From contig JAZONN010000005.1 in the NCBI GenBank assembly GCA_045654485.1, positions 2,105 through 66,104 on the forward strand: a DNA stretch of 64,000 nt, given 5' to 3'. Shown piece after piece: positions 1,435 to 60,170 of the stretch. Both the position numbers and the translations under genes were made by a program. Position 1 is the stretch's first letter. Each line of letters begins with the position of its first letter. Source of the stretch: Candidatus Enterousia sp. (GTDB taxonomy: Bacteria; Pseudomonadota; Alphaproteobacteria; Rs-D84). The notes beneath the pieces were generated by a model. The model was given only the letters and a program-made list of their open reading frames with translations. It was not told where the DNA came from and ran no database searches.

Positions 1435-2982
1435 TTACTGCATACGCACCACGTGACAAGGTGACTTTCCGCCGGTTTGCTTGATTAATTTGTTGCACAA
1501 TGTTTGCGCTTCATCAATTGTCGCAATTGGACCAATACGAAGGCGGTATAGGCGTGCGGTTGATGCACCGGCACCTAAATCCCCAATGCCTTGTTCGTCG
1601 ACGGCAAAAAATACATCGTCTACATATGGTGTTAATAAACCGGATTCGGCACCTGAAAAGCGTGCTAACAATTCGCTCCAATATTGATCTAATGCATCAA
1701 CCGAAGTGTCGGATTGTAATTCAACCGCAACACCAGATTGATTGCTTGCGATAACTGGAATATTATTTTGTGGCAAATATGCGCCTGCTGTATTCCTTTG
1801 TGTTGGTAACATGTTTATAACACTGCCTGTGCCGGTTGCGGGCAATTGTGTTGGTATACCGTATCCCGCAGGCATATAATAACCCGCCCCGTTTACTGGG
1901 TTAGTTGCCGGTGTGTTGCCGACATATACAGGTGTTCCTGTGTAATTTGTTCCCATACTCATTGCGGCCATACTATCGGTATATGCGATATTGTTCAATG
2001 ATTGGCCCGATAACATACTTTGTGCAACGTTTGCCTCGGCCAAAGCCATAACGGATGCGGTATCTGCGATTAAGAATGGTTTTTCACGTTTTTTTATACA
2101 TACAATTCTTTGGCCACTGCGTAATACCATATCGCCAACCGCCTCTACGATTAACAAGCGGCCGTCTTCACCATCTGTGCGAAATCCAACGGGGGATTCG
2201 CCACCTTCTACCAACAAAGATACAACCGGTCTTTGTGTCATAGAAATTACTTTGTCGCCAAAATCAATGTATGTGAAAATACGATCACGCCATACACGTT
2301 CTGGTGCAATTACATAATCGTCTGGATTTGGTACGTATATATCTAAATCAAAGCGGAATTCAGATGGGTCGATTTTCATTGATTTTATCCATCCATAATC
2401 TTCGCCATCAACACCAACAGTAACCGGCCCGCTAGATTTTTTTGTGAATATAGAACCTGCGCCGCCGCTGGCTTTCTGGCCACCGGCCGATGCGATTGCT
2501 GGTGTATTGCCATCTAATACAACATCTACTTGGGAATATGTAATTTCACTGGCGTTTGCTGGCTCGGCACGTAAATAGAAAATATATCTATTGCCTGAAT
2601 TGCCGGTCACGATCATATTTGTGTCAGAACCATAGTTGTCGGTTGCTGGGCTAATAAACATTGTTTTATCGCCTTGGGTTGCGTCAACCACGAATTGACC
2701 GCTATCTCCGATTTGGATATCAGATATTTGTTCGCCCATTGGCAGATTGACCATGGTCAACATCCCGTTACGCAATTTGATTGGTAAAACCGAACCCTGA
2801 GACCAAGCCAACTGGGCATACCCCGGTTTTATACTGCCACTGGCCATATTGGCGGTTGGGTTGTCCCATGCGTATTGAACACCGTTACCTGGCTCGGCAA
2901 ATGCATCCCAAGATGCACACGTTAATAGCCCGACAACTGCGAACGCCAAAACATTGCCCATAAATACTTTTGACCGGTTCAT
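1435..2982 (-). CDS. virB9: Type IV secretion VirB9/TrbG/CagX-family protein with long C-terminal extension ending in a SPOR-like domain
   Basis: Signal peptide MNRSKVFMGNVLAFAVVGLLTCASWDAFA. VirB9 N-domain pattern: LTMVNLPMGEQISDIQIGDSGQFVVDATQGDKTMFISPATDNYGSDTNMIVTGNSGNRYIFYLRA. VirB9 C-domain pattern: RIFTYIDFGDK...RPVVSLLVEGGESPVGFRTDGEDGRLLIVEAVGDMVLRSGQRIVCIKK. A G/T/P/N-rich linker and a SPOR-like tail (ARLYRLRIGPIATIDEAQTLCNKLIKQTGGKSPCHVV) follow. I prefer ATG 2982, preceded by AGGAAGG, over the TTG at 2988 used by the ORF track. Confidence 0.88.
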   Translation of the reverse strand: MNRSKVFMGNVLAFAVVGLLTCASWDAFAEPGNGVQYAWDNPTANMASGSIKPGYAQLAWSQGSVLPIKLRNGMLTMVNLPMGEQISDIQIGDSGQFVVDATQGDKTMFISPATDNYGSDTNMIVTGNSGNRYIFYLRAEPANASEITYSQVDVVLDGNTPAIASAGGQKASGGAGSIFTKKSSGPVTVGVDGEDYGWIKSMKIDPSEFRFDLDIYVPNPDDYVIAPERVWRDRIFTYIDFGDKVISMTQRPVVSLLVEGGESPVGFRTDGEDGRLLIVEAVGDMVLRSGQRIVCIKKREKPFLIADTASVMALAEANVAQSMLSGQSLNNIAYTDSMAAMSMGTNYTGTPVYVGNTPATNPVNGAGYYMPAGYGIPTQLPATGTGSVINMLPTQRNTAGAYLPQNNIPVIASNQSGVAVELQSDTSVDALDQYWSELLARFSGAESGLLTPYVDDVFFAVDEQGIGDLGAGASTARLYRLRIGPIATIDEAQTLCNKLIKQTGGKSPCHVVRMQ

Positions 2983-3026
2983 AATCAATCCTTCCTGTTT
3001 TCTTTTAATGTGTTATAGCACTATTT

Positions 3027-3695
3027 TTATTCCATGTCCAGCGGATCTGTCTGCCCATCTACAACTTTGTATTGTATTACTTTTAGTCCCAATGGGTTAT
3101 CTAATCTGTTTTTCCACTTTAATTTCGTTTTATCTGTTGCAATGTCGATTTGTATTTTATAGGAAGTATCGGTTGTTTTGCCATATTTATCTATGCATCG
3201 ATAATTTATTCCGGCTTGATATCTTTCTTGGTTTTTTGTGTTTAAATCGACGGTTAATGGCAATGTTTCTGTAATGATAACACTACAAGTTTTATCTGGG
3301 GTTGTGTTGCCCATATATTTTCTAAATGCGTTTGTTTTTGTAAAAGTATTATATACCGTATCGTCCGACCATATGCGAATTGCGCCGTCGTTGCTATTCC
3401 ATTTTTTTTGCATCGCATTCTGATTTGCATAGATTTCGTTTCTGTGTTGGATATATTCATTAACAAATGTGACTTTATAGTTTTTTAACGCTTCATCGCT
3501 TTTTGGTATATGATTTACCACTTGGACATCTTGGTTTTCACGATTGGATGTGCGTAAAAAGAAAATTTGTGGTCTGTCTAAGGGGAACATACTGTATACC
3601 GTGGTGCCTAAAACACCCAAAGTCACCACCAATCCAGTCAAAATAAAAGTGGTAATTCTTGTCTGTAAAACATTGGGTTCTGTGCGTGTTGTCAC
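3027..3695 (-). CDS. virB8: Type IV secretion VirB8-family protein
   Basis: Short cytoplasmic tail, one TM (ITTFILTGLVVTLGVLGTTVY) and a periplasmic domain with VirB8-like signatures (LKNYKVTFVNEYIQHRNEIY; C-terminal NPLGLKVIQYKVVD). I prefer GTG 3695, preceded by AAGGAGA at 3701-3707. The ORF-track start at 3812 would read through the promoter region. Confidence 0.8.
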   Translation of the reverse strand: MTTRTEPNVLQTRITTFILTGLVVTLGVLGTTVYSMFPLDRPQIFFLRTSNRENQDVQVVNHIPKSDEALKNYKVTFVNEYIQHRNEIYANQNAMQKKWNSNDGAIRIWSDDTVYNTFTKTNAFRKYMGNTTPDKTCSVIITETLPLTVDLNTKNQERYQAGINYRCIDKYGKTTDTSYKIQIDIATDKTKLKWKNRLDNPLGLKVIQYKVVDGQTDPLDME

Positions 3696-3719
3696 GGCGT
3701 CTCTCCTTCTAATAAAACA

Positions 3720-3749
3720 ATTGTAGAAAAAAATATAACCCCTGTGCAA
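3720..3749 (-). promoter_or_regulatory. Putative sigma70 promoter of the virB8-9-10 operon (TTGCAC-N18-TACAAT)
   Basis: The minus strand reads cTTGCACaggggttatatttttttcTACAATtg about 25 nt upstream of the virB8 SD/GTG. This is a motif match only. Confidence 0.4.
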
Positions 3750-3801
3750 GGAAAATTTTGTAAAATCATATATGTTTGTATGCGTGTTTATGAAAATGTT
3801 C

Positions 3802-3830
3802 TTGCGTGTCAAAGTAAAAAATATTATAAT
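3802..3830 (+). promoter_or_regulatory. Putative sigma70 promoter for tRNA-Trp-secE-nusG (TTGCGT-N17-TATAAT)
   Basis: The plus strand reads cTTGCGTgtcaaagtaaaaaatatTATAAT about 90 nt upstream of tRNA-Trp. This is a motif match only. Confidence 0.4.
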
Positions 3831-4057: not shown

Positions 4058-4237
4058 ATGAAGAAAATGCTGGAATTTTTTAAATCTGTTCGTGCCGAAT
4101 GGTTTAAGATTGTGTGGCCATCACGCGACAGTGTTGTTCGTGCAACAATTATGATATTGGTGTTTTCGGGGCTGGCTGCATTGTTTTTCTTTGCGGTTGA
4201 CAGTATTCTGAACGCAATTGTTGGTTGGGTTTTCTAA
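4058..4237 (+). CDS. secE: Preprotein translocase subunit SecE (59 aa, single TM)
   Basis: This ORF is below the ORF-track cutoff. It translates as MKKMLEFFKSVRAEWFKIVWPSRDSVVRATIMILVFSGLAALFFFAVDSILNAIVGWVF. It lies between tRNA-Trp and nusG. Confidence 0.9.
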   Translation: MKKMLEFFKSVRAEWFKIVWPSRDSVVRATIMILVFSGLAALFFFAVDSILNAIVGWVF

Positions 4238-4258
4238 TATAGGCAAAGGAAGCGTAAG

Positions 4259-4792
4259 ATGGAAGAAAGAATGCAATGGTTTGTTGTGAATGTTCATACA
4301 AGTTGCGAAGATAAAGTTGCGCGTGGTCTGCGTGAACAAATTGATAAACGTCGTTTGAATGCTTATTTTGGTGAAATTTTGGTTCCAACACGTGAAGTAA
4401 CTGAAATTAAAGCGGGTAAACGTGTTAAGAGTGAGAAGAAGTTCTTTCCGGGTTATATCGTTGTTCAAATGGTTATGAATAACGAAACGTTTACATTGGT
4501 TAAGCAGATTCCTCAGGTTGTTATGTTCTTGGGTGCAAAAAATAAACCAATCGCTGTTAGTGAAGAAGAAGCCCGTCGCTTGTTAAAGCAAGTAGAAGAG
4601 GGTGCGGTTGTTATGGATGATGTTGAATACGAAGTTGGTCAAGAAGTTCATGTTATTGATGGGCCGTTTGCTGGCTTTAATGGTGTGGCATCCGAAGTTG
4701 ACAATGTAAAACAAAAAATGACTGTGACGGTTTTGGTCTTTGGTCGTGAAACCAGTATGGATTTGGAATTTAATCAAGTCGAAAGGGTATAG
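4259..4792 (+). CDS. nusG: Transcription termination/antitermination factor NusG
   Basis: N-terminal NGN domain (WFVVNVHTSCEDKV...) and C-terminal KOW motif (VHVIDGPFAGFNGVASEV). Synteny is secE-nusG-rplK. Confidence 0.96.
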   Translation: MEERMQWFVVNVHTSCEDKVARGLREQIDKRRLNAYFGEILVPTREVTEIKAGKRVKSEKKFFPGYIVVQMVMNNETFTLVKQIPQVVMFLGAKNKPIAVSEEEARRLLKQVEEGAVVMDDVEYEVGQEVHVIDGPFAGFNGVASEVDNVKQKMTVTVLVFGRETSMDLEFNQVERV

Positions 4793-4906
4793 TTCCAAAG
4801 CAAAAGATTTTTGTGGTTTTCTGAAAAAATTCATGTAAAATCACAGCAAACCGTGGTAGATACGCCATATCGTACCACGACACAAACGAAAAAAACGGAG
4901 TGAAAA

Positions 4907-5338
4907 ATGGCAAAAAAAGAAGTTAAGGGATTGGTTAAATTGGTCGTCCCTGCAAAACAAGCAAATCCTGCGCCTCCTATTGGTCCTGCGTTGGGTGCTG
5001 CTGGTGTAAACATCGCAGAATTCTGCAAACAGTTTAACGACAAAACATCTGATAAAGAACCTGGAATGCCAATTCCATGTATTATCACTGTTTATACAGA
5101 TCGCAGTTTCGAATTTATTATGAAATTGCCACCTGTGTCGTACTACATTAAAAAGGCCTTGAAACTGAAAATCGGTTCTCATAAACCAGGTCGTGATTTT
5201 GTTGGTACATTGTCTCGTGCGCAATTGCAAGAAATTGCCGAAGCAAAAATGCCTGACTTGAATTGCTCTTCCATTGAATCTGCTATGAATATTGTTGCGG
5301 GTCAATGCCGTTCTATGGGCGTAAAGGTAGAGGAGTAA
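4907..5338 (+). CDS. rplK: 50S ribosomal protein L11
   Basis: The sequence MAKKEVKGLVKLVVPAKQANPAPPIGPALGAAGVNIAEFCKQFN is unmistakable L11. Confidence 0.98.
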   Translation: MAKKEVKGLVKLVVPAKQANPAPPIGPALGAAGVNIAEFCKQFNDKTSDKEPGMPIPCIITVYTDRSFEFIMKLPPVSYYIKKALKLKIGSHKPGRDFVGTLSRAQLQEIAEAKMPDLNCSSIESAMNIVAGQCRSMGVKVEE

Positions 5339-5342
5339 TATC

Positions 5343-6017
5343 ATGAAACTGACAAAAAAACAGCAAACTTGGAAAAATTTGGATGCCGACAAAGTTTATT
5401 CTTTGGCCGATGCAATCGAAGTATTGCGTGAATATGCATCTAAAAAATTTGATGAAACATTGGAAATCGCTATCCGTTTGGGTATCGATGTAACCAAGGC
5501 CGACCAAAACATTCGTGGTATGTTGTCTTTGCCAAATGGTACAGGTAAATCTGTACGTGTTGCTGTATTCACAGCCAATGCGCAAGACGAAGCCAAGAAA
5601 GCGGGTGCGGACGTTGTTGGTGGTGAAGAATTGATTGATTCTGTTGCTGCGGGTAACATCAACTTTGATCGTGTAATCGCAACACCAGACATGATGCCAA
5701 AAATGTCAAAAATCGCACGTGTATTGGGTCCAAAGGGCTTGATGCCGAACCCAAAACTGGGCACGGTTACAAACAATGTTGCAGAAGCGGTTGCCAATGC
5801 AAAAGCGGGTCAAATTGAATACCGTGCTGAAAAGAAAGGTATCATCCACGCTGGTATTGGTAAAATGTCTTTCTCTACAGAAAAATTGGTTGAAAATGCA
5901 AATGCATTGATTGATCAATTAAAGAAAGTAAAACCATCTACATCCAAAGGTCAATATATCTTGGGTATTTCGGTTGCTACAACCCAAGGCCCAGGTTTGA
6001 AGGTAGATGCAAAATAA
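5343..6017 (+). CDS. rplA: 50S ribosomal protein L1
   Basis: L1-like sequence (FDETLEIAIRLGIDVTKADQNIRG...) and operon position. Confidence 0.98.
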   Translation: MKLTKKQQTWKNLDADKVYSLADAIEVLREYASKKFDETLEIAIRLGIDVTKADQNIRGMLSLPNGTGKSVRVAVFTANAQDEAKKAGADVVGGEELIDSVAAGNINFDRVIATPDMMPKMSKIARVLGPKGLMPNPKLGTVTNNVAEAVANAKAGQIEYRAEKKGIIHAGIGKMSFSTEKLVENANALIDQLKKVKPSTSKGQYILGISVATTQGPGLKVDAK

Positions 6018-6204
6018 TTAAATGCGATTGGGGAAATAAAACTCTCCAATCGCATAACAGATTTCTGTCCATGACTGATGGTGCGGCAACGCTTAATTCC
6101 CATCATAGACAAAGAGAAAATTCTTTGGGGCAGGAACCTCAGCCCCATCCCAGAGCAATCTGGATGGAAAGTTAACAAAAACAGAAGCTTGAAGGAATAA
6201 ACAG
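6018..6204 (+). promoter_or_regulatory. Structured rplA-rplJ spacer, candidate L10 (rplJ) autoregulatory leader
   Basis: This 187-nt non-coding spacer has a 10-bp hairpin (6022-6031 with 6046-6055, atgcgattgg/ccaatcgcat) and further stems (ctgatgg...ccatcat; ggggc...gcccc). Many bacteria carry an L10 leader here. I have not confirmed a match to that family. Confidence 0.3.
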
Positions 6205-6684
6205 ATGAAACGCGAAGAAAAATCAGATTTGATTTCAGCGTTACAGTCGTCCCTGAAAGAAGCAAACGGTGTTTTCGTTGTTGAAAACCATGGTTTGACT
6301 GTAAAAGAATTCGAAGAATTGCGCAATGAATTGCGTCCAATGGTTTCGTTATTCAAAGTTGTCAAAAACCGTTTGATGAAGTTGGCATTGAAAGATACCG
6401 ACTTTGAACCTGTGTCTGAATTTATGAAACGTCCAACGGCTGTTGCGGTTGCAACTGACGGTTTGGCGGTTACCAAAGTTTTGGCAAAATTTGCCGAAGC
6501 GCACCCAAATTTAACAATTTTGGGCGGTAAAATGGACGCAGACGTTCTGGATGTAGACGGCGTATTGCAATTATCCAAGCTTCCTTCCCTGTTGGAAATC
6601 CGTGGCACTATCGCACGTATCTTGGTCGAACCAGGTTCACGTTTGGCACGTGTTTCAGCAGAGTATGGAAAAAAAGAACAATAA
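6205..6684 (+). CDS. rplJ: 50S ribosomal protein L10
   Basis: L10-like sequence and position upstream of rplL. Confidence 0.96.
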   Translation: MKREEKSDLISALQSSLKEANGVFVVENHGLTVKEFEELRNELRPMVSLFKVVKNRLMKLALKDTDFEPVSEFMKRPTAVAVATDGLAVTKVLAKFAEAHPNLTILGGKMDADVLDVDGVLQLSKLPSLLEIRGTIARILVEPGSRLARVSAEYGKKEQ

Positions 6685-7189: not shown

Positions 7190-7387
7190 ATACCGGCGTA
7201 AAAGACGTATGTTAAAATATACACAAGACAACAGCAGGGCAAAAAGGAGATTGTTAAATAAATTGTGGTCTGGTAATTCATTCTTAATTATCCGACATCT
7301 TTGATGAAAATATTCACAATTTATTTAAGAATTTTCTTTTTGCCCCGCTTCGTTTGCAAAACACACAGAAAAAAAGGATTAAAACCG

Positions 7388-10300
7388 ATGGCAGTTATCC
7401 AGAAACTAAGAAAATCTTTTGGTAAAAGTTTTTTGCAAACTCCGCTTCCTGATTTAGTTGAAATTCAATACGATTCGTATAAAGAATTCTTGCAGGCAGA
7501 TGTTGAACCACAATCCCGTAAAAATATGGGATTGCAAAATGTATTCTCCTCTATGTTCCCAATCAAGGACTATGCCGGCATTGCCGACCTGGAATTTGTG
7601 GAATATACATTGGACAAACCTGTTTACAATGTAAAAGAATGCATGTTGCGCAATATGACATATTCTAGCAAGTTAAAATTGAAGCTGAGATTGATTTTAT
7701 GGGATGTCGCCGAAGATGGCAAAAAAACATTGCGCGATATCAAAGAACAAGAAATATTTATGGGCGAAGTGCCATTAATGACTGAACGTGGCAGCTTTAT
7801 CGCATCCGGTGTTGAACGTGTAATTGTATCCCAGATGCATCGTGCCCAAGGTGTAGTGTTTGCAACAACCAAAGAATCAAAAGTTGCGGGTAATCCGGTA
7901 ACATATACTGCACGTATTATTCCAGAACATGGTTCATGGATTGATTTCGAAGAATCCAAAGGTGTCATCTATGTTCGTATCGACCGTCGCCGTAAAGTAC
8001 CGGCAACGGTTTTGTTACGTTGCTTGCCATGTGCCGAAGATGAAAAGAAATGGATTGCCGATCCACGCAAACCAACAATCGCCGGTATGTCCGATACAGA
8101 AATTCTGTCGGCATTCTATAACCGCATCCCATTGAAATTTGATGGCAAATTGTGGACTGGCGAAACAGAATCATTCTCGGGCTTGGATAAATATCGCTTG
8201 AATTATGACTTGATTAATCCAAAAGATAAAAAAGTCATTGCATCCAAAGGCGATCGTTTGAATGCCAAACGTATGAAGAAATTGCTGGAATCAAAATCAT
8301 TTGGCATTATGCCTGAATCATTGGTTGGTGAATATTTGTTTGACCCAATCATGAACGGCGACGAAGTTGTAATGCCTGCGGGTACAGAAATCACCGAAGA
8401 AGTTCTGAATGATTTGGATAAAATGAATATCAAAGAAATCTCGCTGATTTCAATTGATAACGCAACGGTAAGTGCACATATGCGCAATACATTGTTGGCG
8501 GACAAAACAACAAATCGTGAAGAAGCGTTGATTGAAATCTATAACATCATCCGTCCGGGTGAACGCCCAACATTAGAAGCGGCAATCAATCTGTTTATGC
8601 GCCAAGGTTTTGAACCTGCATACTATGATTTGTCTGCGGTTGGTCGTTTCAAGATGAACAAACGCTTGAAAATTGACTCTGGTAAAAAACCAGAAGACGA
8701 ACGTCTGTTAACAAAATCCGACTTCTTGGCGGTATTAAAGACATTAACAAACATTATCGACCGCAAAGATACAGTTGATGATATTGATAACTTGTCAAAT
8801 CGTCGCGTTCGCACGGTTGGCGAATTGTTGGAACAAAACTTCCGTACCGGTATGGTTCGTATTGAACGCTTGGTCCGTGAAAGCTTGACTTCTCCAAACA
8901 TTGCAAATATGCAACCCCAAGACGTTATCAATGTAAAACCATTGATGTCATTGGTATCTGAATTCTTGGGAACATCACAATTGTCTCAGTTTATGGACGC
9001 ATACAATCCATTGTCTGAATTGGAACACAAACGTCGTATTTCTGCTTTGGGGCCTGGTGGTTTGAATCGTGAACGTGCCGGCATTGACGTACGTGACGTT
9101 CATCCAACACACTATGGTCGCTTGTGTCCAATTCACACCCCCGAAGGTGCGAATATTGGTCTGGTTAACCATTTGTCTGCATATGCACGTGTCAACCCAT
9201 ATGGTTTCATTGAAACACCATACTATGTTGTTGAAAATAGCCGTGTTACAGACAAAATGGTATACTTGACCGCCGATGAAGAATTGGGTCATAAAATCGC
9301 CCAAGGTAACACCCCAACAACCAAAGACGGCGCATTGGCCGAAGAAATGGTTACGGCGCGTGTTGACGGCGAATTTACAATGGTTGCCAAAGAAGAAGTT
9401 GACTTAATCGACGTTGAACCACGTCAGGTGGTATCAATTGCAACCGGTTTGATTCCATTCGTTGAAAACGACGACGCGAACCGTGCATTGATGGGTTCGA
9501 ACATGCAACGTCAGGCCGTTCCATTATTGCGTGTCCAAGCACCATTGGTCGGAACCGGTATTGAACGTGAAGTGGCCCGCGATTCCCGCACAGGTAAGGT
9601 TGCGAAACACAGTGGTGTTGTTGAATCTGTGGACGCAAACCGCATCGTGGTTAAATGTATGAACAGCCGCAACGTTGTAACAGGTGTTGATATTTATAAT
9701 TTGGAAAAATTTGAACGTTCCAACAGTGAAACAATCATTCACCAAAAACCATTGGTCAAAGTTGGCGACCGTATTTCTGCGGGCGACATCATTGCCGACG
9801 GTTCATCTATGAACTATGGTGAATTGGCATTGGGTCGCAACGTATTGGTTGCCTTTATGCCATGGCGTGGTTATAACTACGAAGACTCAATTGTTATCTC
9901 GGAACGTATTTCACGCGATGACGTATTTACATCTGTAAAAATCGTTGAAAAAGAATTCAAAGTTCGTGACACTCAATTGGGCCCAGAATCTTTGACACGC
10001 GATATTCCAAACGTTGGCGAAGAAGCATTAAAGAACTTGGACGAATCCGGTATCATCTATGTTGGTGCCCGTGTAAAACATGGTGACATTTTGGTTGGTC
10101 GTGTGACACCAAAATCCGAAACCTTGTTAACCCCAGAAGAAGCGTTGTTGCGCAACATCTTTGGTGAAAAGGCATTGAACGTAAAAGATACATCATTGCG
10201 CGTTGGTCCAAACGAAGAAGGTACAGTTATCGGTGTTAACGTATTAACACGTCATGGTGTTAAGAAAGACGAACGCACCCAGATGATTGAACTGCAAAAA

Positions 10301-17476: not shown

Positions 17477-17881
17477 CTATCTGGATTTTTGTGCCATTTG
17501 TGCAATATTTTGGCGTCTCGCTTCATTTTCTTTGCGTGCCGCCGCTGCGCCTGCACATGCCCCCAATGCTACGCTCGCTGCCAAAACGCCATATGTTGCC
17601 AATGGATGCGCGTTATATCGTGTTTCTTCGCGATAGTCATTGGTCCACATTTTGTATTCATAGTGTTTTTCTGCTTCGGTTGCATCAAAACTGTACGCTG
17701 TCTTAAAGCGATTTTTCAATGAATAATCATACAAATGCGCATCCGAACAATACTGTATCAAATGTGCTCCGACACCCAATGCATTGATTGCAACAAATGT
17801 GATTGCACCAACTTTAGTTGCACCGACTATTGTACCTTTAACAGTGTTTACTGCGTTCAAAAATTTATCTTTAATCGTCAT
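17477..17881 (-). CDS. Hypothetical protein with two Gly/Ala-zipper hydrophobic segments (134 aa)
   Basis: Preceded by the SD AAGGAG. The hydrophobic segments are GTIVGATKVGAITFVAINALGVGA and YGVLAASVALGACAGAAAA. No family recognised. Confidence 0.6.
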   Translation of the reverse strand: MTIKDKFLNAVNTVKGTIVGATKVGAITFVAINALGVGAHLIQYCSDAHLYDYSLKNRFKTAYSFDATEAEKHYEYKMWTNDYREETRYNAHPLATYGVLAASVALGACAGAAAARKENEARRQNIAQMAQKSR

Positions 17882-17980
17882 TTTTCAATCTCCTTTGGTT
17901 ATCACTCATATCAACAAACCACCATAGATTTATATAGGACAAAAGTTAGAAAAATCAATTTAACGATGTGGTGCGGGTAA

Positions 17981-18003
17981 ATAAAAATCCCCAAAAGGGG
18001 ATT
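17981..18003 (-). terminator. Intrinsic terminator after the Cys-rich protein gene
   Basis: The minus strand reads AATCCCCttttGGGGATTtttattt. Confidence 0.75.
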
Positions 18004-18011
18004 TGTTTTAA

Positions 18012-18764
18012 CTAATTTGAATAATTGCACTGCTGTGAAATTGAGTATTTGTCATTATTAGATGTCGTGCCTGTGCTGCCGGCCTTGATATAGCAATCAG
18101 TTATAGCGGTTGATCCGGCGTTTGAAGAACCGGCTATACCGTCTTGGTATGGGCATCCGGAACAGCCCGAACATTGAATGCCGGTACTTTGTTTAATGGA
18201 ACATGATGGTGTGCCGTATGAATTGGCGGCACATCTCCGTTCGGTTGTATATTCACACTTGCAATCTGTATCTGCTGTGCAGGTTGGGACTGTTCGTTCT
18301 TCGTATCTGGATAGTGCAGATGTAGTTCCAGATGATGTCCACGCTGTTGCTGGGGTACATGTGCTACATTCAGAGCCAATAACAATATCGCAATTTTTAA
18401 AAATGTCTGGGTCGATGGTAGGGCCGCTGCCGCCGCCGCCAACGGTACCACAACTGGCCACACGGGTTACATTGCTGCATATGCTAGATACAGATGTATT
18501 TGAATTACAGCTGCCGCAGTCGCTGTATGTTTCAATGGGCTGCATATATGTTGTTCCGTTAGAAGTATAGGTATAGCATTTTTGTGTGACTGTGCCGCCA
18601 CACGCGGTGCCGGTGCTTGTTACCCCTGTGGTCAGTACTGATTCTTTAACCTTGGTTACATAATGATCCATGTTGGAATTGCAGGATATTTCGGTGCAGG
18701 TATATGCATACGCGTTGATAGAATATATCAAAGATGCAATCAGAGAGATAAAGTATTTGTTCAT
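18012..18764 (-). CDS. Secreted Cys/Ser/Thr/Gly-rich protein of unknown function (250 aa)
   Basis: Strong SD AAGGAGG and signal peptide MNKYFISLIASLIYSINAYA. The mature part has about 21 Cys, including CSGCSGC, CKC and CGSC clusters. No enzymatic motif seen. Confidence 0.75.
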   Translation of the reverse strand: MNKYFISLIASLIYSINAYAYTCTEISCNSNMDHYVTKVKESVLTTGVTSTGTACGGTVTQKCYTYTSNGTTYMQPIETYSDCGSCNSNTSVSSICSNVTRVASCGTVGGGGSGPTIDPDIFKNCDIVIGSECSTCTPATAWTSSGTTSALSRYEERTVPTCTADTDCKCEYTTERRCAANSYGTPSCSIKQSTGIQCSGCSGCPYQDGIAGSSNAGSTAITDCYIKAGSTGTTSNNDKYSISQQCNYSN

Positions 18765-18822
18765 AAAACTGCCTCCTTTAAGTTGAAGAATAGTTTAATC
18801 AAAACAATATTTCAATAAAAAA

Positions 18823-19272
18823 TTATTCACCGATTTTTAGATTTGGGCGCGTGGTTTTCAAATTGTTCAATGATTTTTCCTGTACGGCACGGAATGCGTC
18901 CGGATTCCATATTTGAAAACTGTTTCCACGTCCAACGAATACAGCGGAATCTGTAATGCCTGCGTGTTTTAAAAGGTCAGATGGGATAACAACACGCCCG
19001 GTTACATCAAATGCCAATTGGCGTGCGTCGGCAAACAACATAGCGGTCAAATCGTCCAATTCGCTGTCGAATACGCCCATTTTATCGGTTGCGCTGGCCA
19101 TCTGTTCCATGCGGGACATGGTAAGGCCTTCTATACAATTATTTGTAAAAGAACGGAACAGAATAACGCCGGCAAAATCTTCTTTTGAAATTGCCGCACG
19201 AAAGGAAGCGGGTACAGAAATTCGCCCTTTGGTATCCAACCGATTTTCATAAGATGAGAGAAATAATGCCAT
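18823..19272 (-). CDS. mraZ: Transcriptional regulator MraZ
   Basis: The N-terminus reads MALFLSSYENRLDTKGRISVPASFRAAI, and a second SpoVT/AbrB-like half contains DVTGRVVIPSDLLKHAGI. This is the typical MraZ duplication. Confidence 0.93.
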   Translation of the reverse strand: MALFLSSYENRLDTKGRISVPASFRAAISKEDFAGVILFRSFTNNCIEGLTMSRMEQMASATDKMGVFDSELDDLTAMLFADARQLAFDVTGRVVIPSDLLKHAGITDSAVFVGRGNSFQIWNPDAFRAVQEKSLNNLKTTRPNLKIGE

Positions 19273-19653: not shown

Positions 19654-19992
19654 ATGCCAAAAAATATCAAAGAAATTATGATTGCTCTGAACCAAGTATT
19701 AACAACAACGGTTTGGGTTAACGAAGATCGTCAAATCGTATCGTTGGCGGATGAATTGAAAATTGGCATGAATAACACTCCACGTTCAATCGAAGATTTG
19801 TCTCGCCCATCATTGGTTGGTGCGTATGTATCATTACAAATTCGTACCGACAATTTCGATATTGCGGCCGAAACATTGGAAACAAAAACATTGGCATTGC
19901 GTGTCAAAGAAATGGTCTTTGCCGAAGCAAAAAAGATTATGGACGCAGCCGATGCAACCGTTACAACGTCAGACGTTGCAATTGCGGCATAA
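19654..19992 (+). CDS. Hypothetical soluble protein (112 aa)
   Basis: Very strong SD aaaggagggga and a clean terminator downstream. No family recognised. Confidence 0.65.
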   Translation: MPKNIKEIMIALNQVLTTTVWVNEDRQIVSLADELKIGMNNTPRSIEDLSRPSLVGAYVSLQIRTDNFDIAAETLETKTLALRVKEMVFAEAKKIMDAADATVTTSDVAIAA

Positions 19993-23194: not shown

Positions 23195-24880
23195 TTAATT
23201 TTCTGATTTTTGTTTGCCAATGCCATAGGTATCTTTGTTGATAATTAAATTTCCTGTGGTGGCCCCTACTGCACCAACGCCACCAACAACCGCACCTGCG
23301 GTAATATAATTTTTAGATTTTTTTGTCTGTTCTGCCCATGCGGTTGCATCTGGGCCATTTGGGTCTAAAACAGCGCGCGCCAAAGATGTATACATACCCG
23401 TTCTTTGGCCTGATGACACGTCGTCATATAATCCAGATGTTGCAGAATTTAATATTGGTTCGCTTTCAATGCCACGTGGTAATCCCAATTGTTCTTTGTG
23501 TGTTTTTACGTTGTTTGCCAAAGTCACATATTCTGCATATAAATTGACCAATTCATCTGAAATGGGCAACGTGGTTGGTTGTGTGTCGTATTTAGTATTA
23601 TTATCGTTACCGTATTTGCATTGAAAAGTTGCGACATAGTTCTCCATTTGGGCCATTGCTTTTTCATCGGCATTTTTTTCTGCTATTCCCATTCCTAACA
23701 TCATACCGCCTGCACCGGTGGCTGCTATTGACGCGCCACCTAAAATTTTATTGGCATTTCTTTGTTCGTTCGCAAGTGCACGTTCATAGTTTTCCCTTAA
23801 TTTTTCATAATCGTTTGCGACGCTCAGCATGGTTAGAAATTCTCTGTTGTTCATATTTTCTGCGCCACTTGCGGGCTTATTTAATCCGCTGGTTTGTTCC
23901 GCTTCTGTTAATTGTTGCCTTTGGGCGTCCAAATCTGCTTGGGTTTCTTCGTCGCTTGGTTCGTATGTTGGTGCCGTTGGACGTTTAATTTGTTTCATTT
24001 CTGCCAATGCATCGACAAATTCGTTTGTTCGTATCCCAAGTGGTGTGTATACATCGTCTTCATAACTATCTATTCCACCATGTATAATTCCATGTAATGT
24101 CCCACCGTAAAAGTATGGGCCGCCGGAATCACCGTGCCATGTATCACATGTTGAAATAAATTTGCCACGCTGATTTATATACTTATTTTTCAATATCCCC
24201 AAACTGTTTATTTGTGGGATTTCGATTATTTCACAATTTATGTGTGCTTTTAATTTGAATTCCCATTCGCCGGGTTCTTTGCTGTTGGGAACACGGCTGT
24301 CGTCCAAATAAATGTTGTATTTATCGCGTACAATCGGTCTGATGGCCTTGTACACAGTCAAATAATCGTCGTTTGGTCTGTTTTTTGCCTGATCCATAAA
24401 AACTTTCTTGCACTGGTTAATTTGTTCTTCGCTTAATATGGCCAGTGATGAAAAACCTGCTGTTGTGACAGTCCTTTTTGTTGTTTTTTCTGCAACGTCA
24501 AAGAAATCGGACCGGTGCAGGTTTGGGTCGTATAAGCGCAATAGTGCCCAATCAGCATGGGCCATATTTTGTCCATATTTTTCCAACGTTGCTTTGCCAC
24601 GTTTATTATCGTGTGTCCATATATCAAACTCCTTGCCTATTTTTACATAGTTATCAAAGTTTGGATTTTCGGTCACGCAATGTCGTGCGGTCAAAATAAT
24701 ATCTGGTGCAACATATTCTGCGGTACATGTGCCTGTTGGTGATGGATAAAAATATACGATTTTATTATATGGTGGTTGGCTCCAATCTACGTATTCTCGT
24801 TCATCGGTACTGCCTATATTTGCATATGTGCATGTGCTGTACAGGATTAGAATAGCAGATATTGCTATTTTTTTTGTCAT
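23195..24880 (-). CDS. Secreted trypsin-like (S1 family) serine protease with ~260-aa C-terminal extension containing two Gly-zipper hydrophobic segments
   Basis: Signal peptide MTKKIAISAILILYSTCTYA. Catalytic His context ILTARHCV and catalytic Ser context CDTWHGDSGGPYF. The C-terminal part has an acidic/coiled linker plus GGASIAATGAGGMMLGMGIA and AGAVVGGVGAVGATTG. I prefer ATG 24880, with GGGGA 9 nt upstream. In-frame alternatives are ATG 24889 and the ORF-track start at 24961. Confidence 0.85.
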   Translation of the reverse strand: MTKKIAISAILILYSTCTYANIGSTDEREYVDWSQPPYNKIVYFYPSPTGTCTAEYVAPDIILTARHCVTENPNFDNYVKIGKEFDIWTHDNKRGKATLEKYGQNMAHADWALLRLYDPNLHRSDFFDVAEKTTKRTVTTAGFSSLAILSEEQINQCKKVFMDQAKNRPNDDYLTVYKAIRPIVRDKYNIYLDDSRVPNSKEPGEWEFKLKAHINCEIIEIPQINSLGILKNKYINQRGKFISTCDTWHGDSGGPYFYGGTLHGIIHGGIDSYEDDVYTPLGIRTNEFVDALAEMKQIKRPTAPTYEPSDEETQADLDAQRQQLTEAEQTSGLNKPASGAENMNNREFLTMLSVANDYEKLRENYERALANEQRNANKILGGASIAATGAGGMMLGMGIAEKNADEKAMAQMENYVATFQCKYGNDNNTKYDTQPTTLPISDELVNLYAEYVTLANNVKTHKEQLGLPRGIESEPILNSATSGLYDDVSSGQRTGMYTSLARAVLDPNGPDATAWAEQTKKSKNYITAGAVVGGVGAVGATTGNLIINKDTYGIGKQKSEN

Positions 24881-24903
24881 TCGTGTCATCCCCACATCGG
24901 TAC

Positions 24904-24934
24904 AAAAATAAAACCGCCATTGGGAAATGGCGGT
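24904..24934 (-). terminator. Intrinsic terminator inside the protease leader
   Basis: The minus strand reads ACCGCCATTtcccAATGGCGGTtttattttt. It ends about 24 nt before the protease ATG. Confidence 0.8.
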
Positions 24935-25121
24935 CGGGGTGTTCGAAAAGTCATTACACAAATAACCCCGTTGCTTTCAATATATAACAACGGCACCCCG
25001 ACCGTATATGGTGGGGTAAAAATAACGGTGCGAACGGCACCGATATTACATCGGATTACGATGCTTTCGCACCGTGTGTAATGGGCTTTTCGAAGGCCCG
25101 AACCCAAATCCCTTTGGATTC
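24935..25121 (-). promoter_or_regulatory. Structured leader RNA (riboswitch-like aptamer candidate plus antiterminator) upstream of the protease gene
   Basis: An 18-bp closing helix pairs 25075-25083 with 24952-24960 and 25086-25094 with 24942-24950. Internal helices pair 25066-25074 with 25026-25034 and 24988-24993 with 24968-24973. An 11-nt perfect complement (24994-25004 versus 24931-24941) competes with the terminator stem. Confidence 0.6.
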
Positions 25122-36409: not shown

Positions 36410-38392
36410 TTACCACAGTTTTACACGTGCATCGGCATCAATGAACATTTTGTCATCGCTTGTAATACCAAATGCATCGTACCAAGCGGTCACGTGTGGC
36501 AAAATTCCATTAACACGGTTTTTGCCCAACGAATGTTCATCAACCTTGGTCAATCGCAGTTCTTCATCTGCACGAATATTCTGCGCCCATGCGCCTGCAT
36601 ATGCGACAAAGAAACGCATATCTGCCGTCATATTTGCAATGTCTGCGGATGGTGTGCCATATTTTTTATACGCATCAAATGATATTGTAACGCCACCGTA
36701 ATCAGCCAAGTTTTCACCCAACGTAAATTCGCCGTTTGCATAAACTTCGTCGTTAATTTTGATTTTATCAAAGAATTCCTTCATGACATTGGCGCGTTTA
36801 TTGAATCCGTCTGCATCTTCGGCGGTCCACCAATCTTTCATATTTCCGTCTTTATCAAAGTGGCGTCCGGAATCATCAAAACCGTGTGTCATTTCATGTC
36901 CAATAACTGCGCCGATTGCGCCATAGTTAAATGCGTCGTCTGCTGACATATCAAAGAAGGGGTATTGCAATATTCCGGCCGGAAAACAGATTTCGTTTGT
37001 GGATGGGTCGTAATAAGCATTCACTTCGTGTGCGTTCATATACCAAATATTTGGATCTTTTTTCTGACCAATTTTTTTAATCCAAAATTCATCTTCGAAC
37101 TGTGCAACGCGCACCATATTTTCCCACAAAGAATCGTCTTTGATTTCCAATGCGTCATAGTCACGCCATTTGTCCGGATATCCAATTTTTGCACGGAAAG
37201 TGGACAGTTTTTCCAATGCTTTTTCACGTGTTTCATCGGACATCCAATCCAAGTTTTCGATGCGGTCTGCGTACGCGCGCTGTAGATTTTTTACCAATGT
37301 CTGCATACGTTGTTTTGCATCGCCGGAAAAATATTGTGCAACGTACAATCGGCCGATTTCTTCACCCAAAGAACCGTCTAACATAGATACCGCACGTTTC
37401 CAACGTGGCTTTGGTTCTTTTTGTCCCGCCATTGTTCGGTTATAGAAATCAAATGATATATCGTATGTTTTATCATCTAATACAGAATCTGCCGCGCCAA
37501 TGATGCGATATTTCAAATATGTTTTAATTAATTCCATATCTGTATCATTTATGATTGCGATTGATTCTGTGATTGCTTCGGGTTGGGCGATATTGATAAA
37601 TTCTGCCGCTGTTGCGCCACGTGCGGTTAGGAAAGTATCCCAATCAAACCCTGCGAATTTTTCTTTTACTTCTGCGACACTCATTTTGTGATAGTTTGCA
37701 TGTGGGTCGCGCAGTTTTTCTTTTGGATAGAACGATTTTGCCATACGTTCTTCTAATTTATATAATTTTTCAACATCGACATCCAATCCAAAGTTTTTCA
37801 TTTGTTTGGCGATAAATTCTTTGTATTTTTTTCTGACTTCGATGGACTTTGCGTCGGTATCAAAGTAATAATCGCGCGATAATCCTAATCCACTTTGACC
37901 GATGTTGTACAAGAAATGTTCGCTGTCCATTTCGTCTAACGCAACGCCATCGCCCCAGAAAGCAGAAGAAAACTTAAATACGTTACCCAGATATTTTGGC
38001 AAATCTGCACGGGTTAATGTATCTATTTCGTCCAAGTATTTTTGAACAGGTTTAATTCCGTCCGCATTTAATTTATCTGCATCCATTGCGATTTTGTACA
38101 GCATACCAATTTTGCCATTATCATTTTCGGCAATTTGACGTGTGCGTTCTAAATTTGTGTTACGCAAAACTTCGAACGCGCCAAATCTGGAATAGTCGTC
38201 GGGAATAGGGTGGGCCACCTGCCAACCGCGTGTTGCATAATTGTAAAAGTCGTCACCGGCTTTGACGGACATATCCATATTTTCAATTTTGATACCTGCG
38301 TTCAATGTTTTCTCCTTTGTGATATTGTGTGCGAATATAATTGCGCCTGCGACCGCAATGATTCCGATAATATTTAATGTTTTTCCTTCCAT
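36410..38392 (-). CDS. pepO: M13-family zinc metalloendopeptidase (PepO/neprilysin-like)
   Basis: N-terminal membrane anchor, the NAYY motif (VNAYYDPSTNEICFPAGILQ), the HExxH motif (VIGHEMTHGFDD) and a C-terminal ...VKLW. Confidence 0.9.
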   Translation of the reverse strand: MEGKTLNIIGIIAVAGAIIFAHNITKEKTLNAGIKIENMDMSVKAGDDFYNYATRGWQVAHPIPDDYSRFGAFEVLRNTNLERTRQIAENDNGKIGMLYKIAMDADKLNADGIKPVQKYLDEIDTLTRADLPKYLGNVFKFSSAFWGDGVALDEMDSEHFLYNIGQSGLGLSRDYYFDTDAKSIEVRKKYKEFIAKQMKNFGLDVDVEKLYKLEERMAKSFYPKEKLRDPHANYHKMSVAEVKEKFAGFDWDTFLTARGATAAEFINIAQPEAITESIAIINDTDMELIKTYLKYRIIGAADSVLDDKTYDISFDFYNRTMAGQKEPKPRWKRAVSMLDGSLGEEIGRLYVAQYFSGDAKQRMQTLVKNLQRAYADRIENLDWMSDETREKALEKLSTFRAKIGYPDKWRDYDALEIKDDSLWENMVRVAQFEDEFWIKKIGQKKDPNIWYMNAHEVNAYYDPSTNEICFPAGILQYPFFDMSADDAFNYGAIGAVIGHEMTHGFDDSGRHFDKDGNMKDWWTAEDADGFNKRANVMKEFFDKIKINDEVYANGEFTLGENLADYGGVTISFDAYKKYGTPSADIANMTADMRFFVAYAGAWAQNIRADEELRLTKVDEHSLGKNRVNGILPHVTAWYDAFGITSDDKMFIDADARVKLW

Positions 38393-39552: not shown

Positions 39553-41073
39553 ATGATGAAGGCGGGAAAGATTTTATTTTTATCGGGTATTTTTGCGCCG
39601 TTCATGGCATTTGCTGCGAACGAAGGGGTGCCTTCGTACTATCAAACATCTGCCACACCAACCGCAAATCAGGTTGCGTATGGCCAATATGCTAACCAAG
39701 GTTATACCAAATACGTTGGCAAATCCGGTTCAAAGCAGGTTGTTGGAACACGTACACAAACGTATCAGGTTCCACGTTCGCAATATGTACCTGCATATAC
39801 CGGTGGTATGACGACAAACGGTATTGCGATGCCCGCTGCGGCTGAACCTGCGACAACAATGTATGCGGGATATTCACGTCGTTTTGCGGATTTTGAATTT
39901 GAAACGGGTGTAAATTCTATTTTGGAATGGGACGACATGGTATGGAATGAATTGTTGATCGGTGCCCGTCATAATTTTAGTTTGCGTGATTTTGATTTGT
40001 CTGTATTTGGGGAATATAGTTATGGTAAAATGGCCCATGGCGGTTTGGCTATGGATTATGATTTGAAACCATTTGATGCATCCGACCCATATTATGGAAT
40101 ATTTACAATATCTGTTGGTGATCAAACGGGGCGTAGTGATCATTTCCGTTTTGGTATATCTGCACGCCATGTCTGGGATATTGCGGGTTGGAAACTGTCG
40201 CCAACATTTGGGTATGAAATTTTCAAGCATAATTTGGAAATGTCGGATCATTATTATCCGAACCCTGGAATATATTTGCCTTTGATGACCAATGGTGGTG
40301 AATATATCTTTGGTGACGAATTGGGCAATTATTATGCGGTTCCGGTTGGGATGACGCCGCCATCTGATTGGTATCAAGTGTGTATGTCGCCCGAAGATAT
40401 TAAAATCGTAACCAATACCCCAACGGGCAGCTTGGATGGATTTTTGACATTGGGCGATTCATTGGTTACTGGTGATTATGATATTACAATGGGTACTGTG
40501 CCTTGGGGTGTTGGTGCCGGTGAATGTGTTATTATTGGCGGCGATGGTCCGGTAATTGTTGGTGGTACAACACATATTTACAATACGACATGGTCTGGAT
40601 TTTACGTCGGGCTAGAGATTGAAAAACAGGTAACATTAAAAGATAAATTACGTTTCTATATGCAATTTGGTATGCCAAAGTATTCGTCCGAAGGTATATG
40701 GCCAAACCGTACAGATTGGCAACAGAACCCCAGTTTCTTGGACGAAGGCGATAATGATGCATATTCATATATGGCGGAAATGGAATATAATTATAAATTG
40801 TCCGATCGTTTGCAGTTATCGTTAAAGGTTGATACGAATTTCTTCCATGTTGGCAATATTCCTGGCGAATTGTATATTGCGGAAACGTCACAATACGTTA
40901 TGGACGAAAACGGCCAATATGTAATGGAAGAAGTGATTGATGAATTCGGTAATGTTTACTATGTTCCATTATTAGAAACTGTACCGGCCCATACTGAACA
41001 CGTTAGCAATTCTTTAAAGCGTGCCACTTGGCAATCGTTTGGATTGCATATTGGTGTCAAATACGCATTTTAA
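39553..41073 (+). CDS. Putative outer-membrane beta-barrel protein (506 aa)
   Basis: Signal peptide MMKAGKILFLSGIFAPFMAFA. Aromatic-rich alternating pattern and a terminal ...GVKYAF, as in OMPs. No specific family recognised. Confidence 0.6.
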   Translation: MMKAGKILFLSGIFAPFMAFAANEGVPSYYQTSATPTANQVAYGQYANQGYTKYVGKSGSKQVVGTRTQTYQVPRSQYVPAYTGGMTTNGIAMPAAAEPATTMYAGYSRRFADFEFETGVNSILEWDDMVWNELLIGARHNFSLRDFDLSVFGEYSYGKMAHGGLAMDYDLKPFDASDPYYGIFTISVGDQTGRSDHFRFGISARHVWDIAGWKLSPTFGYEIFKHNLEMSDHYYPNPGIYLPLMTNGGEYIFGDELGNYYAVPVGMTPPSDWYQVCMSPEDIKIVTNTPTGSLDGFLTLGDSLVTGDYDITMGTVPWGVGAGECVIIGGDGPVIVGGTTHIYNTTWSGFYVGLEIEKQVTLKDKLRFYMQFGMPKYSSEGIWPNRTDWQQNPSFLDEGDNDAYSYMAEMEYNYKLSDRLQLSLKVDTNFFHVGNIPGELYIAETSQYVMDENGQYVMEEVIDEFGNVYYVPLLETVPAHTEHVSNSLKRATWQSFGLHIGVKYAF

Positions 41074-59579: not shown

Positions 59580-60170
59580 ATGAAAAAATTAACATTCTTA
59601 TCTGCATTATTTGGTTTAACATTTGCTGGTGCGGCATCTGCGGCTGATATTACAATTTATCATTCGCCATCTTGCCCACATTGCCATCATGCGCGTGATT
59701 TTATCACCAACACATTGGTATATGAATATCCTGAATTAAAGGTCACCGAAGTAAACGTTACGGACCCTGCAAACCGTGATATGTTTATGGCGACATTGGA
59801 AAAATGTGGTTTTGAATCTGGTGGTGTTCCTGTTATTGTTATTGGCGACAAATGTGAACAGGGTTATGCCGACTTTATGCAGGATTCATTGCGTGAATCT
59901 GTCGAAGTTGACTTAAACGACGAACAGAAAGCAGCCGCTGCAGAAAATAAAAAAGCAATGGCCGAAGATGCAGAAAAATTCAAAGCAGAACATGCCGAAC
60001 GTGCATCTGCCGTAACAGAATACAGCGCAGTTGTGGCCGAAGAAGCCACCACTGCGGCCGAAGAATCTGCGCCGGCCACCCAAGGCAGCACAACATGGTT
60101 TTATGCATTGTTGATTGTATTGGTTGCTGGTTTGGGCTATGTATTGGTTCGCAAAGACAAAAAGAAATAA
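59580..60170 (+). CDS. Exported thioredoxin/glutaredoxin-fold protein with CPHC active site and C-terminal membrane anchor
   Basis: Signal peptide MKKLTFLSALFGLTFAGAASA, then ITIYHSPSCPHCHHARDF...GVPVIVIGDK. An Ala/Glu-rich linker and a terminal TM (WFYALLIVLVAGLGYVLV) follow. Preceded by the SD aaaggag. Confidence 0.75.
   Translation: MKKLTFLSALFGLTFAGAASAADITIYHSPSCPHCHHARDFITNTLVYEYPELKVTEVNVTDPANRDMFMATLEKCGFESGGVPVIVIGDKCEQGYADFMQDSLRESVEVDLNDEQKAAAAENKKAMAEDAEKFKAEHAERASAVTEYSAVVAEEATTAAEESAPATQGSTTWFYALLIVLVAGLGYVLVRKDKKK

Follow-up and report, generated by a model that had tools for sequence, protein, structure and literature searches.

A cysteine-rich protein encoded by Candidatus Enterousia sp. 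is, we conclude with high confidence, an exported, disulfide-type and accessory member of a new protein family of the order Rs-D84, and carries a module resembling the repeat of ciliate immobilization antigens. Its gene lies at positions 18012 to 18764, on the minus strand of a 64-kb stretch of contig JAZONN010000005.1, analyzed here as a whole and called the window. As to its role, one more specific reading appears to us about equally likely to be right or wrong: an accessory, oxidatively folded extracytoplasmic protein that combines a conserved scaffold with a diversifying exposed half, and acts at the surface or in interaction with partners.

The gene and its product

The original prediction, made from this sequence by eye, had proposed an open reading frame (ORF) of 250 amino acids (aa) at this site without stating its strand. 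The frame is not a chance one, since several independent metagenome contigs encode products that are identical or at least 94% identical to it, the same locus also exists with a 56% identical allele, and at least 136 related clusters were recovered. The strong Shine-Dalgarno (SD) sequence, signal peptide and terminator of its own that had been ascribed to the gene were all located (Table 1). The SD sequence AAGGAGG stands 7 nt 5′ of the ATG; just one other of the window's 55 crude genes, ORF 19654-19992, has a 7-nt match of this kind. The strong SD sequence is the one sign seen of the high expression suggested in the original prediction. Read from the sequence, the signal peptide is predicted to be cut after AYA, with SINAYA before and YTC after the cut, and both the N-terminus and the A-x-A site are conserved in family alignments. 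A hairpin equivalent to the terminator at 17985-18004 is also found 3′ of the allele in another strain (locus L001, see below).

The product contains 21 cysteines in 250 residues (8.4%). All of them fall within the 230 residues past the predicted cleavage, giving a mature protein with 9.1% Cys, in agreement with the earlier estimate of about 21 in about 230. Each of the clusters quoted at that time was found, at residues 23-28 (CTEISC), 83-86 (CGSC), 133-136 (CSTC), 168-170 (CKC) and 198-204 (CSGCSGC). The rest of the composition is strongly biased (T 15%, S 15%, G 9%, N 6%), with S, T, G and N together making up 45% of the product. The view that the protein holds no recognizable enzymatic or known motif held up as well: Pfam and NCBIfam returned zero matches even at E≤10, and PHROG and PADLOC models did not match the query.

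A multigene family of Rs-D84

Database comparison identified the gene as, by profile similarity, a member of an undescribed multigene family confined to Candidatus Enterousia and the order Rs-D84. Word-seeded searching yielded a single protein, 56% identical, besides the cluster of the query itself. An exhaustive HMMER scan of 1.84 billion representatives added nine further small secreted cysteine-rich proteins, and two profile iterations extended the family to at least 136 clusters, all from metagenome-assembled genomes (MAGs) of Alphaproteobacteria or Enterousia. The query matched the family profile end to end with E 1.2e-25, its closest relatives having been down-weighted. The exhaustive scan had a single non-family match, a 934-aa actinobacterial-looking protein (P0016), which was discounted because its match is short and local. 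Family members are either unnamed in their sources or called 'hypothetical protein', and we found no description of the family in the literature or in the curated libraries searched.

The family was defined by an N-terminal signal peptide, a length of about 160-290 aa and about 7-11% Cys, traits that the query shares. Over 136 members, the median length is 210 aa and the median Cys content 9.1%; 121 of them have a hydrophobic N-terminus. The C-terminus is characteristic: the final residue is N in 90 of the 136, typically as C-Y-Y-x-N, and the query, ending in CNYSN, carries the C-terminal consensus W..GY..RT..C...YRCAxGYYG...GC..CP...G.S.AGS..IT.CYI......C-Y-Y-x-N.

Scanning species-representative genomes recovered 85 family ORFs at 56 loci in 30 assemblies. 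Copies per assembly ranged from 1 to 7, which is a lower bound, and 2-4 often lay inside one 12-kb locus; no paralogue was detected elsewhere in the 64-kb window. Nearly all related loci are labelled as Enterousia, 'uncultured Alphaproteobacteria' or 'Rickettsiales' MAGs, and their gut sources include human, chicken, roe deer, rabbit, mouse and termite. Family members were also seen on contigs labelled Bacteroides fragilis (L054) and Muribaculaceae (L011), and P0084 is a further case of this kind. One neighbour in L054 is Rho-like and groups with ORFs of five alphaproteobacterial loci, so these Bacteroidota-binned contigs are probably mis-binned Rs-D84 DNA and not a sign that the family is more widely distributed. 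Locus L057 (CAMWON01), from a related genome, carries two family members, at 4089-6306 and 7196-9491, near genes for S1 and adenylate kinase, a neighbourhood like that of the window. The S1/adenylate kinase region may be a recurrent site for the family.

Conserved cysteines and a predicted C-terminal fold

Conservation is unevenly distributed along the protein. The mean fraction of family members identical to the query residue is 0.13 over residues 21-135 and 0.33 over residues 136-250. Loss of the cysteine positions in homologues, which the original prediction had named as evidence that would speak against it, was not seen: 16 of the 21 Cys columns retain Cys in 75% or more of the members with a residue at that position, and C178, C201, C204 and C224 are invariant across the family. 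C188 and C198 are confined to the pair of alleles from this species, where they lie within an inserted loop.

The number of mature cysteines is odd in 92 of 95 aligned members (13, 15, 17, 19, 21 or 23, counted past the signal-peptide column); a cruder, alignment-free cut gave an odd count in 147 of 178. Because totals shift by twos yet stay odd, we infer that the cysteines form disulfide pairs and leave one thiol unpaired. Apart from C188 and C198 occurring together, Cys co-occurrence gave no pairing signal.

AlphaFold2, run on the 95-sequence alignment, modelled residues 130-250 with a predicted local distance difference test score (pLDDT) of 88-97, the N-terminal half being of low confidence. 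The model shows two long β-hairpins (154-161/171-178 and 182-188/198-203) with short strands, and a run on the C-terminal domain only gave a mean pLDDT of 84. Sequence profiles against the PDB produced marginal matches only, to RNF216 (E 0.52), perlecan laminin-EGF (E 0.2) and the complementarity-determining regions of antibodies.

A module resembling the repeat of ciliate immobilization antigens

Of all named proteins, the family profiles reached only immobilization antigens of Tetrahymena thermophila, with E values of 4e-9 to 3e-11. Aligned to an immobilization antigen with hhalign, the family gave 45 columns at a probability of 91%. A hidden Markov model (HMM) of residues 172-228 matched six stretches of the antigen P0029 (five near-complete and one partial) at 15-18 bits each, 68.7 bits in total, and four repeats of P0030. 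Residue shuffles of P0029 and P0030 (1000) scored at most −29.8 bits with the same model, so the match is more than an effect of composition. The suggestion of a eukaryote-like module in the original prediction thereby gained substance, as each repeat of the ciliate antigens is matched and the shuffled controls score far lower. The common motif is C-x-[AK]-[GN]-[YF]-Y-G-x7-10-G-C-x2-C-P-x1-6-G-[TS]-x4-G-S-T-x2-T-x-C. The module is single in 108 of 136 members, including the query, and present in 2-3 tandem copies in the other 28, which indicates that it is a repeatable unit in bacteria too.

Immobilization antigens are cysteine-rich, glycosylphosphatidylinositol (GPI)-linked, polymorphic surface proteins whose genes make up a large family and are often arrayed; they take part in antigenic variation, and their function is still unclear (PMC4136848). 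The antigens compared here (the T. thermophila Ser family proteins P0029 and P0030, with relatives in Ichthyophthirius and Paramecium) resemble the bacterial family in being cysteine-rich secreted or surface proteins of polymorphic multigene families, often with their genes in arrays. They differ in architecture. Several tandem blocks fill most of the ciliate protein, whereas the query has one block only. P0029 and P0030 end in hydrophobic tails (the GPI signal), whereas the query ends in SISQQCNYSN and has no such tail. Unlike the antigens, the bacterial family has a Sec signal peptide, a variable cysteine-rich N-terminal half and a β-hairpin region, and the bacterial module has Y and I in place of two of the six cysteines in each ciliate repeat. 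With one module, a bacterial signal peptide and no GPI signal, the query falls outside the immobilization-antigen family, with which it shares one building block. The similarity of the two modules may reflect shared descent, horizontal transfer or convergence.

Other cysteine-rich proteins resemble the query less closely. The repeats of PF07699 (Ephrin_rec_like, GCC2/GCC3) and those of growth-factor-receptor, furin-like and laminin-EGF type are likewise short disulfide-rich modules with a C..G.Y...C..CP motif. PF07699 matched P0145, a distant family member, at 19.1 bits, the best score in the family but below its gathering score of 23.1 bits, and also matched P0029 sub-threshold; it did not match the query at E≤10, and Foldseek found no receptor-type cysteine-rich domain. 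The variant-specific surface proteins (VSPs) of Giardia, like the query family, are cysteine-rich, protease-resistant-looking, variable and multigenic, and belong to a gut-dwelling organism. Hallmarks of VSPs are a C-terminal transmembrane helix, a CRGKA tail and many CXXC motifs. The query has neither the helix nor CRGKA, is much smaller and shows no sign of mutually exclusive expression, and the Pfam VSP model matched neither it nor any of 11 family members scanned. CysRRep repeats, linked to horizontal gene transfer, have the pattern Cx6-9Cx5-7Cx8-11Cx7-8CC (Daugavet et al., bioRxiv 10.64898/2026.06.07.730663). They were rejected as relatives, the spacing of the module being C-x22-C-x2-C-x19-C with no CC doublet.

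Allele types, presence or absence, and elevated protein-level change between strains

Strains were compared at the locus by way of other members of the query cluster and by way of the neighbouring 134-aa gene. Contigs from other samples share the neighbourhood at 95-100% nucleotide identity and show three states at the gene site. Type A alleles encode a 250-aa protein and comprise that of the window and at least four variants, 94-98% identical, every one of which keeps all 21 cysteines. The type B allele (L001) encodes a 233-aa, 56% identical protein at the same locus. In the third state the site is empty: in all six loci recovered via the 134-aa gene (gene maps L058-L063) this gene directly follows mraZ, and DNA alignment confirmed the empty site in the five of these six, from co-specific strains, that were aligned.

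Types A and B share 97-100% nucleotide identity over window positions 18022-18261 (about residues 168-247). Over the N-terminal half identity drops to 47-75% with insertions and deletions, against 95-100% in the flanks. The divergent tract reaches into the 3′ half of mraZ, where identity is 72-88%. Over the whole tract from mid-mraZ to the middle of the cysteine-rich gene (18262-19150), the window allele has 47-88% nucleotide identity to other strains. On sequence grounds the tract looks like a homologous-recombination import from a diverged lineage.

Protein-level change is elevated in the gene. Within type A, comparison with three contigs gave 8 nonsynonymous and 2 synonymous changes, a ratio of nonsynonymous to synonymous rates (dN/dS) of about 1.2. 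Flanking genes gave dN/dS of 0-0.18, except for mraZ at 0.29-0.59 on only 2-3 differences; plsX had 0 nonsynonymous and 15 synonymous changes. The contrast between 8:2 in the cysteine-rich gene and 8:34 in the flanking genes is significant (Fisher p=5e-4), although, the counts being small and three of the five compared contigs having the same allele, it marks elevated protein-level change and not proven positive selection. Against a more distant contig (L064), the N-terminal half showed 9.5 nonsynonymous and 2.5 synonymous changes, and the C-terminal half 10 and 19. The ORF was intact in all nine contigs read.

No sign of a mobile element was found at the gene. A tblastn search of phage and plasmid collections gave no match to it, no transposase or integrase adjoins it, and no convincing repeats flank it. 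A 13-nt imperfect inverted repeat (85% complementary) at 18003-18015 and 18795-18807 does bracket the gene almost exactly; it is probably a coincidence, the DNA being AT-rich, and the type B locus does not obviously conserve it.

Proposed mechanism and its weighing against alternatives

In the mechanism that we propose, the protein would be exported by Sec and its signal peptide cut after AYA20. The 230-residue chain would then fold oxidatively outside the cytoplasm, with about 10 disulfides and one free Cys as the parity suggests, and may end up in the periplasm, on the outer surface or in the medium. A plausible catalyst of folding, as a candidate only, is the CPHC protein encoded at 59580-60170. 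The original prediction had pointed to an exported CPHC oxidoreductase there, and its product indeed has a signal peptide, a glutaredoxin-like fold with a DsbA-type CPHC motif, an Ala/Glu-rich linker and a C-terminal membrane anchor. It scores above the gathering score of Pfam Glutaredoxin; its matches to NCBIfam glutaredoxin-like models are well under the curated cut-offs. The protein differs from canonical DsbA, and its host organism is reported to have no respiratory chain. The C-terminal domain of the cysteine-rich protein, with its two long β-hairpins and antigen-repeat-like module, might serve as a stable scaffold or dock to a conserved partner, and the variable N-terminal half would be the exposed part, which might mediate or evade contact with antibodies, phages, host factors or other cells. 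In its behaviour the family resembles variable surface or secreted interaction proteins: it has expanded within the lineage, its copies cluster, strains gain and lose them, alleles are replaced, and the protein evolves fast on a fixed Cys framework. That the protein is a contact or evasion factor of an organism thought to live off partner cells is credible.

Several results weigh against such a surface or interaction role. No lipobox, membrane anchor or known sorting signal was found in the protein. Foldseek searches of PDB and BFVD with the full and C-terminal domain models found no relative that would suggest a binding function (best E 1.8, template-modelling score below 0.27), and these values allow no fold assignment. 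The likeness to immobilization antigens spans no more than about 45-50 residues, in a motif of biased composition. A dN/dS near 1 also fits relaxed constraint, on small counts and with one allele on three of five contigs. Finally, over the 56 family loci there is no recurrent neighbour gene and no conserved secretion-system neighbour, the commonest neighbour cluster occurring in 6.

Among the alternatives, a secreted toxin, bacteriocin-like effector or antimicrobial protein directed at competitors or a host cell, with a disulfide knot for stability in the gut, would suit a small, exported, disulfide-rich, fast-evolving product of a multi-copy family whose presence varies between strains, and the window also holds type IV secretion genes for VirB8 and VirB9. 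We nevertheless consider it improbable, since no toxin, bacteriocin, defence or phage family of Pfam, NCBIfam, PHROG or PADLOC was matched and no immunity or export gene varies along with the gene: mraZ and the 134-aa and 82-aa genes stay where it is missing, and no neighbour is conserved over the 56 loci. Moreover, in polymorphic toxins it is usually the N-terminus that is conserved and the C-terminus that varies, the reverse of the order seen here. A structural envelope protein cross-linked by intermolecular disulfides, after the manner of the chlamydial cysteine-rich outer-membrane complex, seems to us equally doubtful. The query does resemble OmcA and OmcB in being exported, very cysteine-rich and encoded by a reduced-genome bacterium; its strong SD sequence and the exported CPHC oxidoreductase fit this idea, and the single unpaired Cys found family-wide could bond between molecules and so support cross-linking. 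However, Pfam and NCBIfam models of OmcA and OmcB matched neither the query nor any of the 11 family members scanned, which leaves the chlamydial likeness raised in the original prediction without homology, and the query has no lipobox or other lipoprotein signal. Its absence at five of the six other-strain loci recovered via the 134-aa gene marks the gene as dispensable and no essential building block of the envelope, and a hypervariable N-terminal half would be unusual for a lattice component.

A content of 9% Cys that includes CxC and CxxC clusters might instead point to metal ligands, as in a metallothionein- or thiol-sink-type periplasmic protein for metal binding or redox buffering. This we hold to be quite unlikely: the Cys spacing is conserved inside a confidently predicted β-rich fold, the odd counts shifting by twos point to pairing, and the modules that the protein resembles are disulfide-rich extracellular ones of eukaryotes. 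Nor would one expect a homeostasis protein to be hypervariable or absent from particular strains. Least probable of all, in our judgement, is a decaying or functionless lineage-specific ORF whose raised dN/dS reflects relaxed constraint only. The dN/dS of about 1.2 within one allele type would agree with decay, as would the dispensability of the gene in many strains. On the other hand, besides the intact ORFs and the retention of all 21 Cys in type A, the C-terminal half is 97-100% identical between types, SD sequence and terminator are retained, and the signal peptide, Cys framework and C-terminal motif are kept over at least 136 clusters from several host animals.

To return to the contact or evasion factor, a bolder extension of it can be formulated, which we regard as speculative and improbable. 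The Rs-D84 family would be a bacterial counterpart, possibly a xenologue, of protist variant surface antigens: a strain-variable, multigene, disulfide-armoured coat or adhesin built on a ciliate-type module that was exchanged with ciliates or other gut eukaryotes. Towards a eukaryotic partner or host immunity, such a protein could serve in attachment, mimicry or evasion, and its conserved single free Cys might link it covalently to the cell's own surface or to a target.

Implications for Rs-D84 bacteria

Candidatus Enterousia and the rest of Rs-D84 are widespread in the guts of humans, livestock, rodents and termites, and have never been cultured. We know of no account of how these bacteria contact partner cells. 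An expanded, exported and strain-variable family with a eukaryote-like surface-antigen module offers a concrete candidate for the partner interface. Genomes of the order, including Enterousia, measure about 0.75-1.0 Mb; missing from them are respiration and the TCA cycle, standard transporters and parts of glycolysis, and these bacteria have been proposed to depend on partner cells (PMC12306168).

Disulfide-rich, variable proteins made of extracellular modules are known in eukaryotes; new is a bacterial, single-module, Sec-exported and strain-variable form in gut Alphaproteobacteria with reduced genomes. The ciliate surface-antigen module now extends into bacteria, which makes inter-domain transfer versus convergence a testable question. 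An odd Cys count, near-universal in the family, gives it an unusual and simple signature that can be checked. In practice, the family could be used as a strain-typing marker and as a target for metaproteomics, antibody-based enrichment and cell sorting of Rs-D84 organisms.

Genomic context

Table 1. Coordinates of the cysteine-rich gene, its parts and other features of the window.
Feature	Position	Strand	Basis
Coding sequence, 250-aa cysteine-rich exported protein (stop codon included)	18012..18764	-	ORF list and translation; identical product in public collections
Shine-Dalgarno sequence AAGGAGG, 7 nt 5′ of ATG	18772..18778	-	sequence
Signal peptide, residues 1-20 (MNKYFISLIASLIYSINAYA), predicted signal peptidase I cut after AYA	18705..18764	-	read from sequence
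Variable N-terminal half, residues 21-135, 10 Cys, hypervariable between strains	18360..18704	-	allele DNA identity, low AlphaFold2 pLDDT
Conserved C-terminal domain, residues 136-250, 11 Cys, ending C-N-Y-S-N	18015..18359	-	allele identity, family conservation, AlphaFold2
Module of about 57 aa, residues 172-228, C-A-A-N-S-Y-G...G-C-x2-C-P...G-S-T-x2-T-x-C	18081..18251	-	hhalign and module HMM
Intrinsic terminator-like hairpin (AAATCCCC TTTT GGGGATTT), then T-run	17985..18004	-	terminator scan
Presence/absence segment, gene with SD and terminator, about 0.8 kb	17980..18815 (boundaries approximate)	.	gene maps L058-L063, multiple DNA alignment
mraZ, upstream neighbour of the cysteine-rich gene	18823..19272	-	Pfam MraZ; 3′ half within the divergent, recombination-like tract
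134-aa ORF downstream of the cysteine-rich gene, two hydrophobic segments, no family match	17477-17881	-	
CagX/VirB9-like gene, type IV secretion component	1435-2988	-	
VirB8-like gene, type IV secretion component	3027-3812	-	
588-aa trypsin-like protease	23195-24961	-	
M13 peptidase	36410-38392	-	
Pom-like (Protochlamydia outer membrane protein) ORF	39553-41073	+	
M48 peptidase with tetratricopeptide repeats	57525-58856	+	
Exported membrane-anchored glutaredoxin-like protein, CPHC active site; candidate helper	59580..60170	+	translation, Pfam

The window holds housekeeping genes for rpoC, S1, adk, IF-2, NusA and several tRNA synthetases, and its S1 protein shares a cluster of at least 90% identity with S1 of Candidatus Enterousia excrementavium. 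LpxD and an outer-membrane-protein-like gene in the window indicate that the organism is diderm. Several genes for envelope or exported proteins are interspersed with the housekeeping genes: the Pom-like ORF, the trypsin-like protease and the M13 and M48 peptidases (Table 1).

On the 3′ side of the cysteine-rich gene lie the 134-aa ORF and an 82-aa ORF, with no family match for either, followed by plsX converging from the opposite strand. Neither rsmH nor any other dcw gene follows mraZ, which is thus detached from its usual operon in this lineage; what comes after it is the cysteine-rich gene in the window, or the 134-aa ORF directly in L058-L063, where the cysteine-rich gene is missing. Two ORFs without a family match, the 134-aa ORF (17477-17881, minus strand) and a 112-aa ORF (19654-19992, plus strand), have a very strong SD sequence and are 98% conserved between strains.

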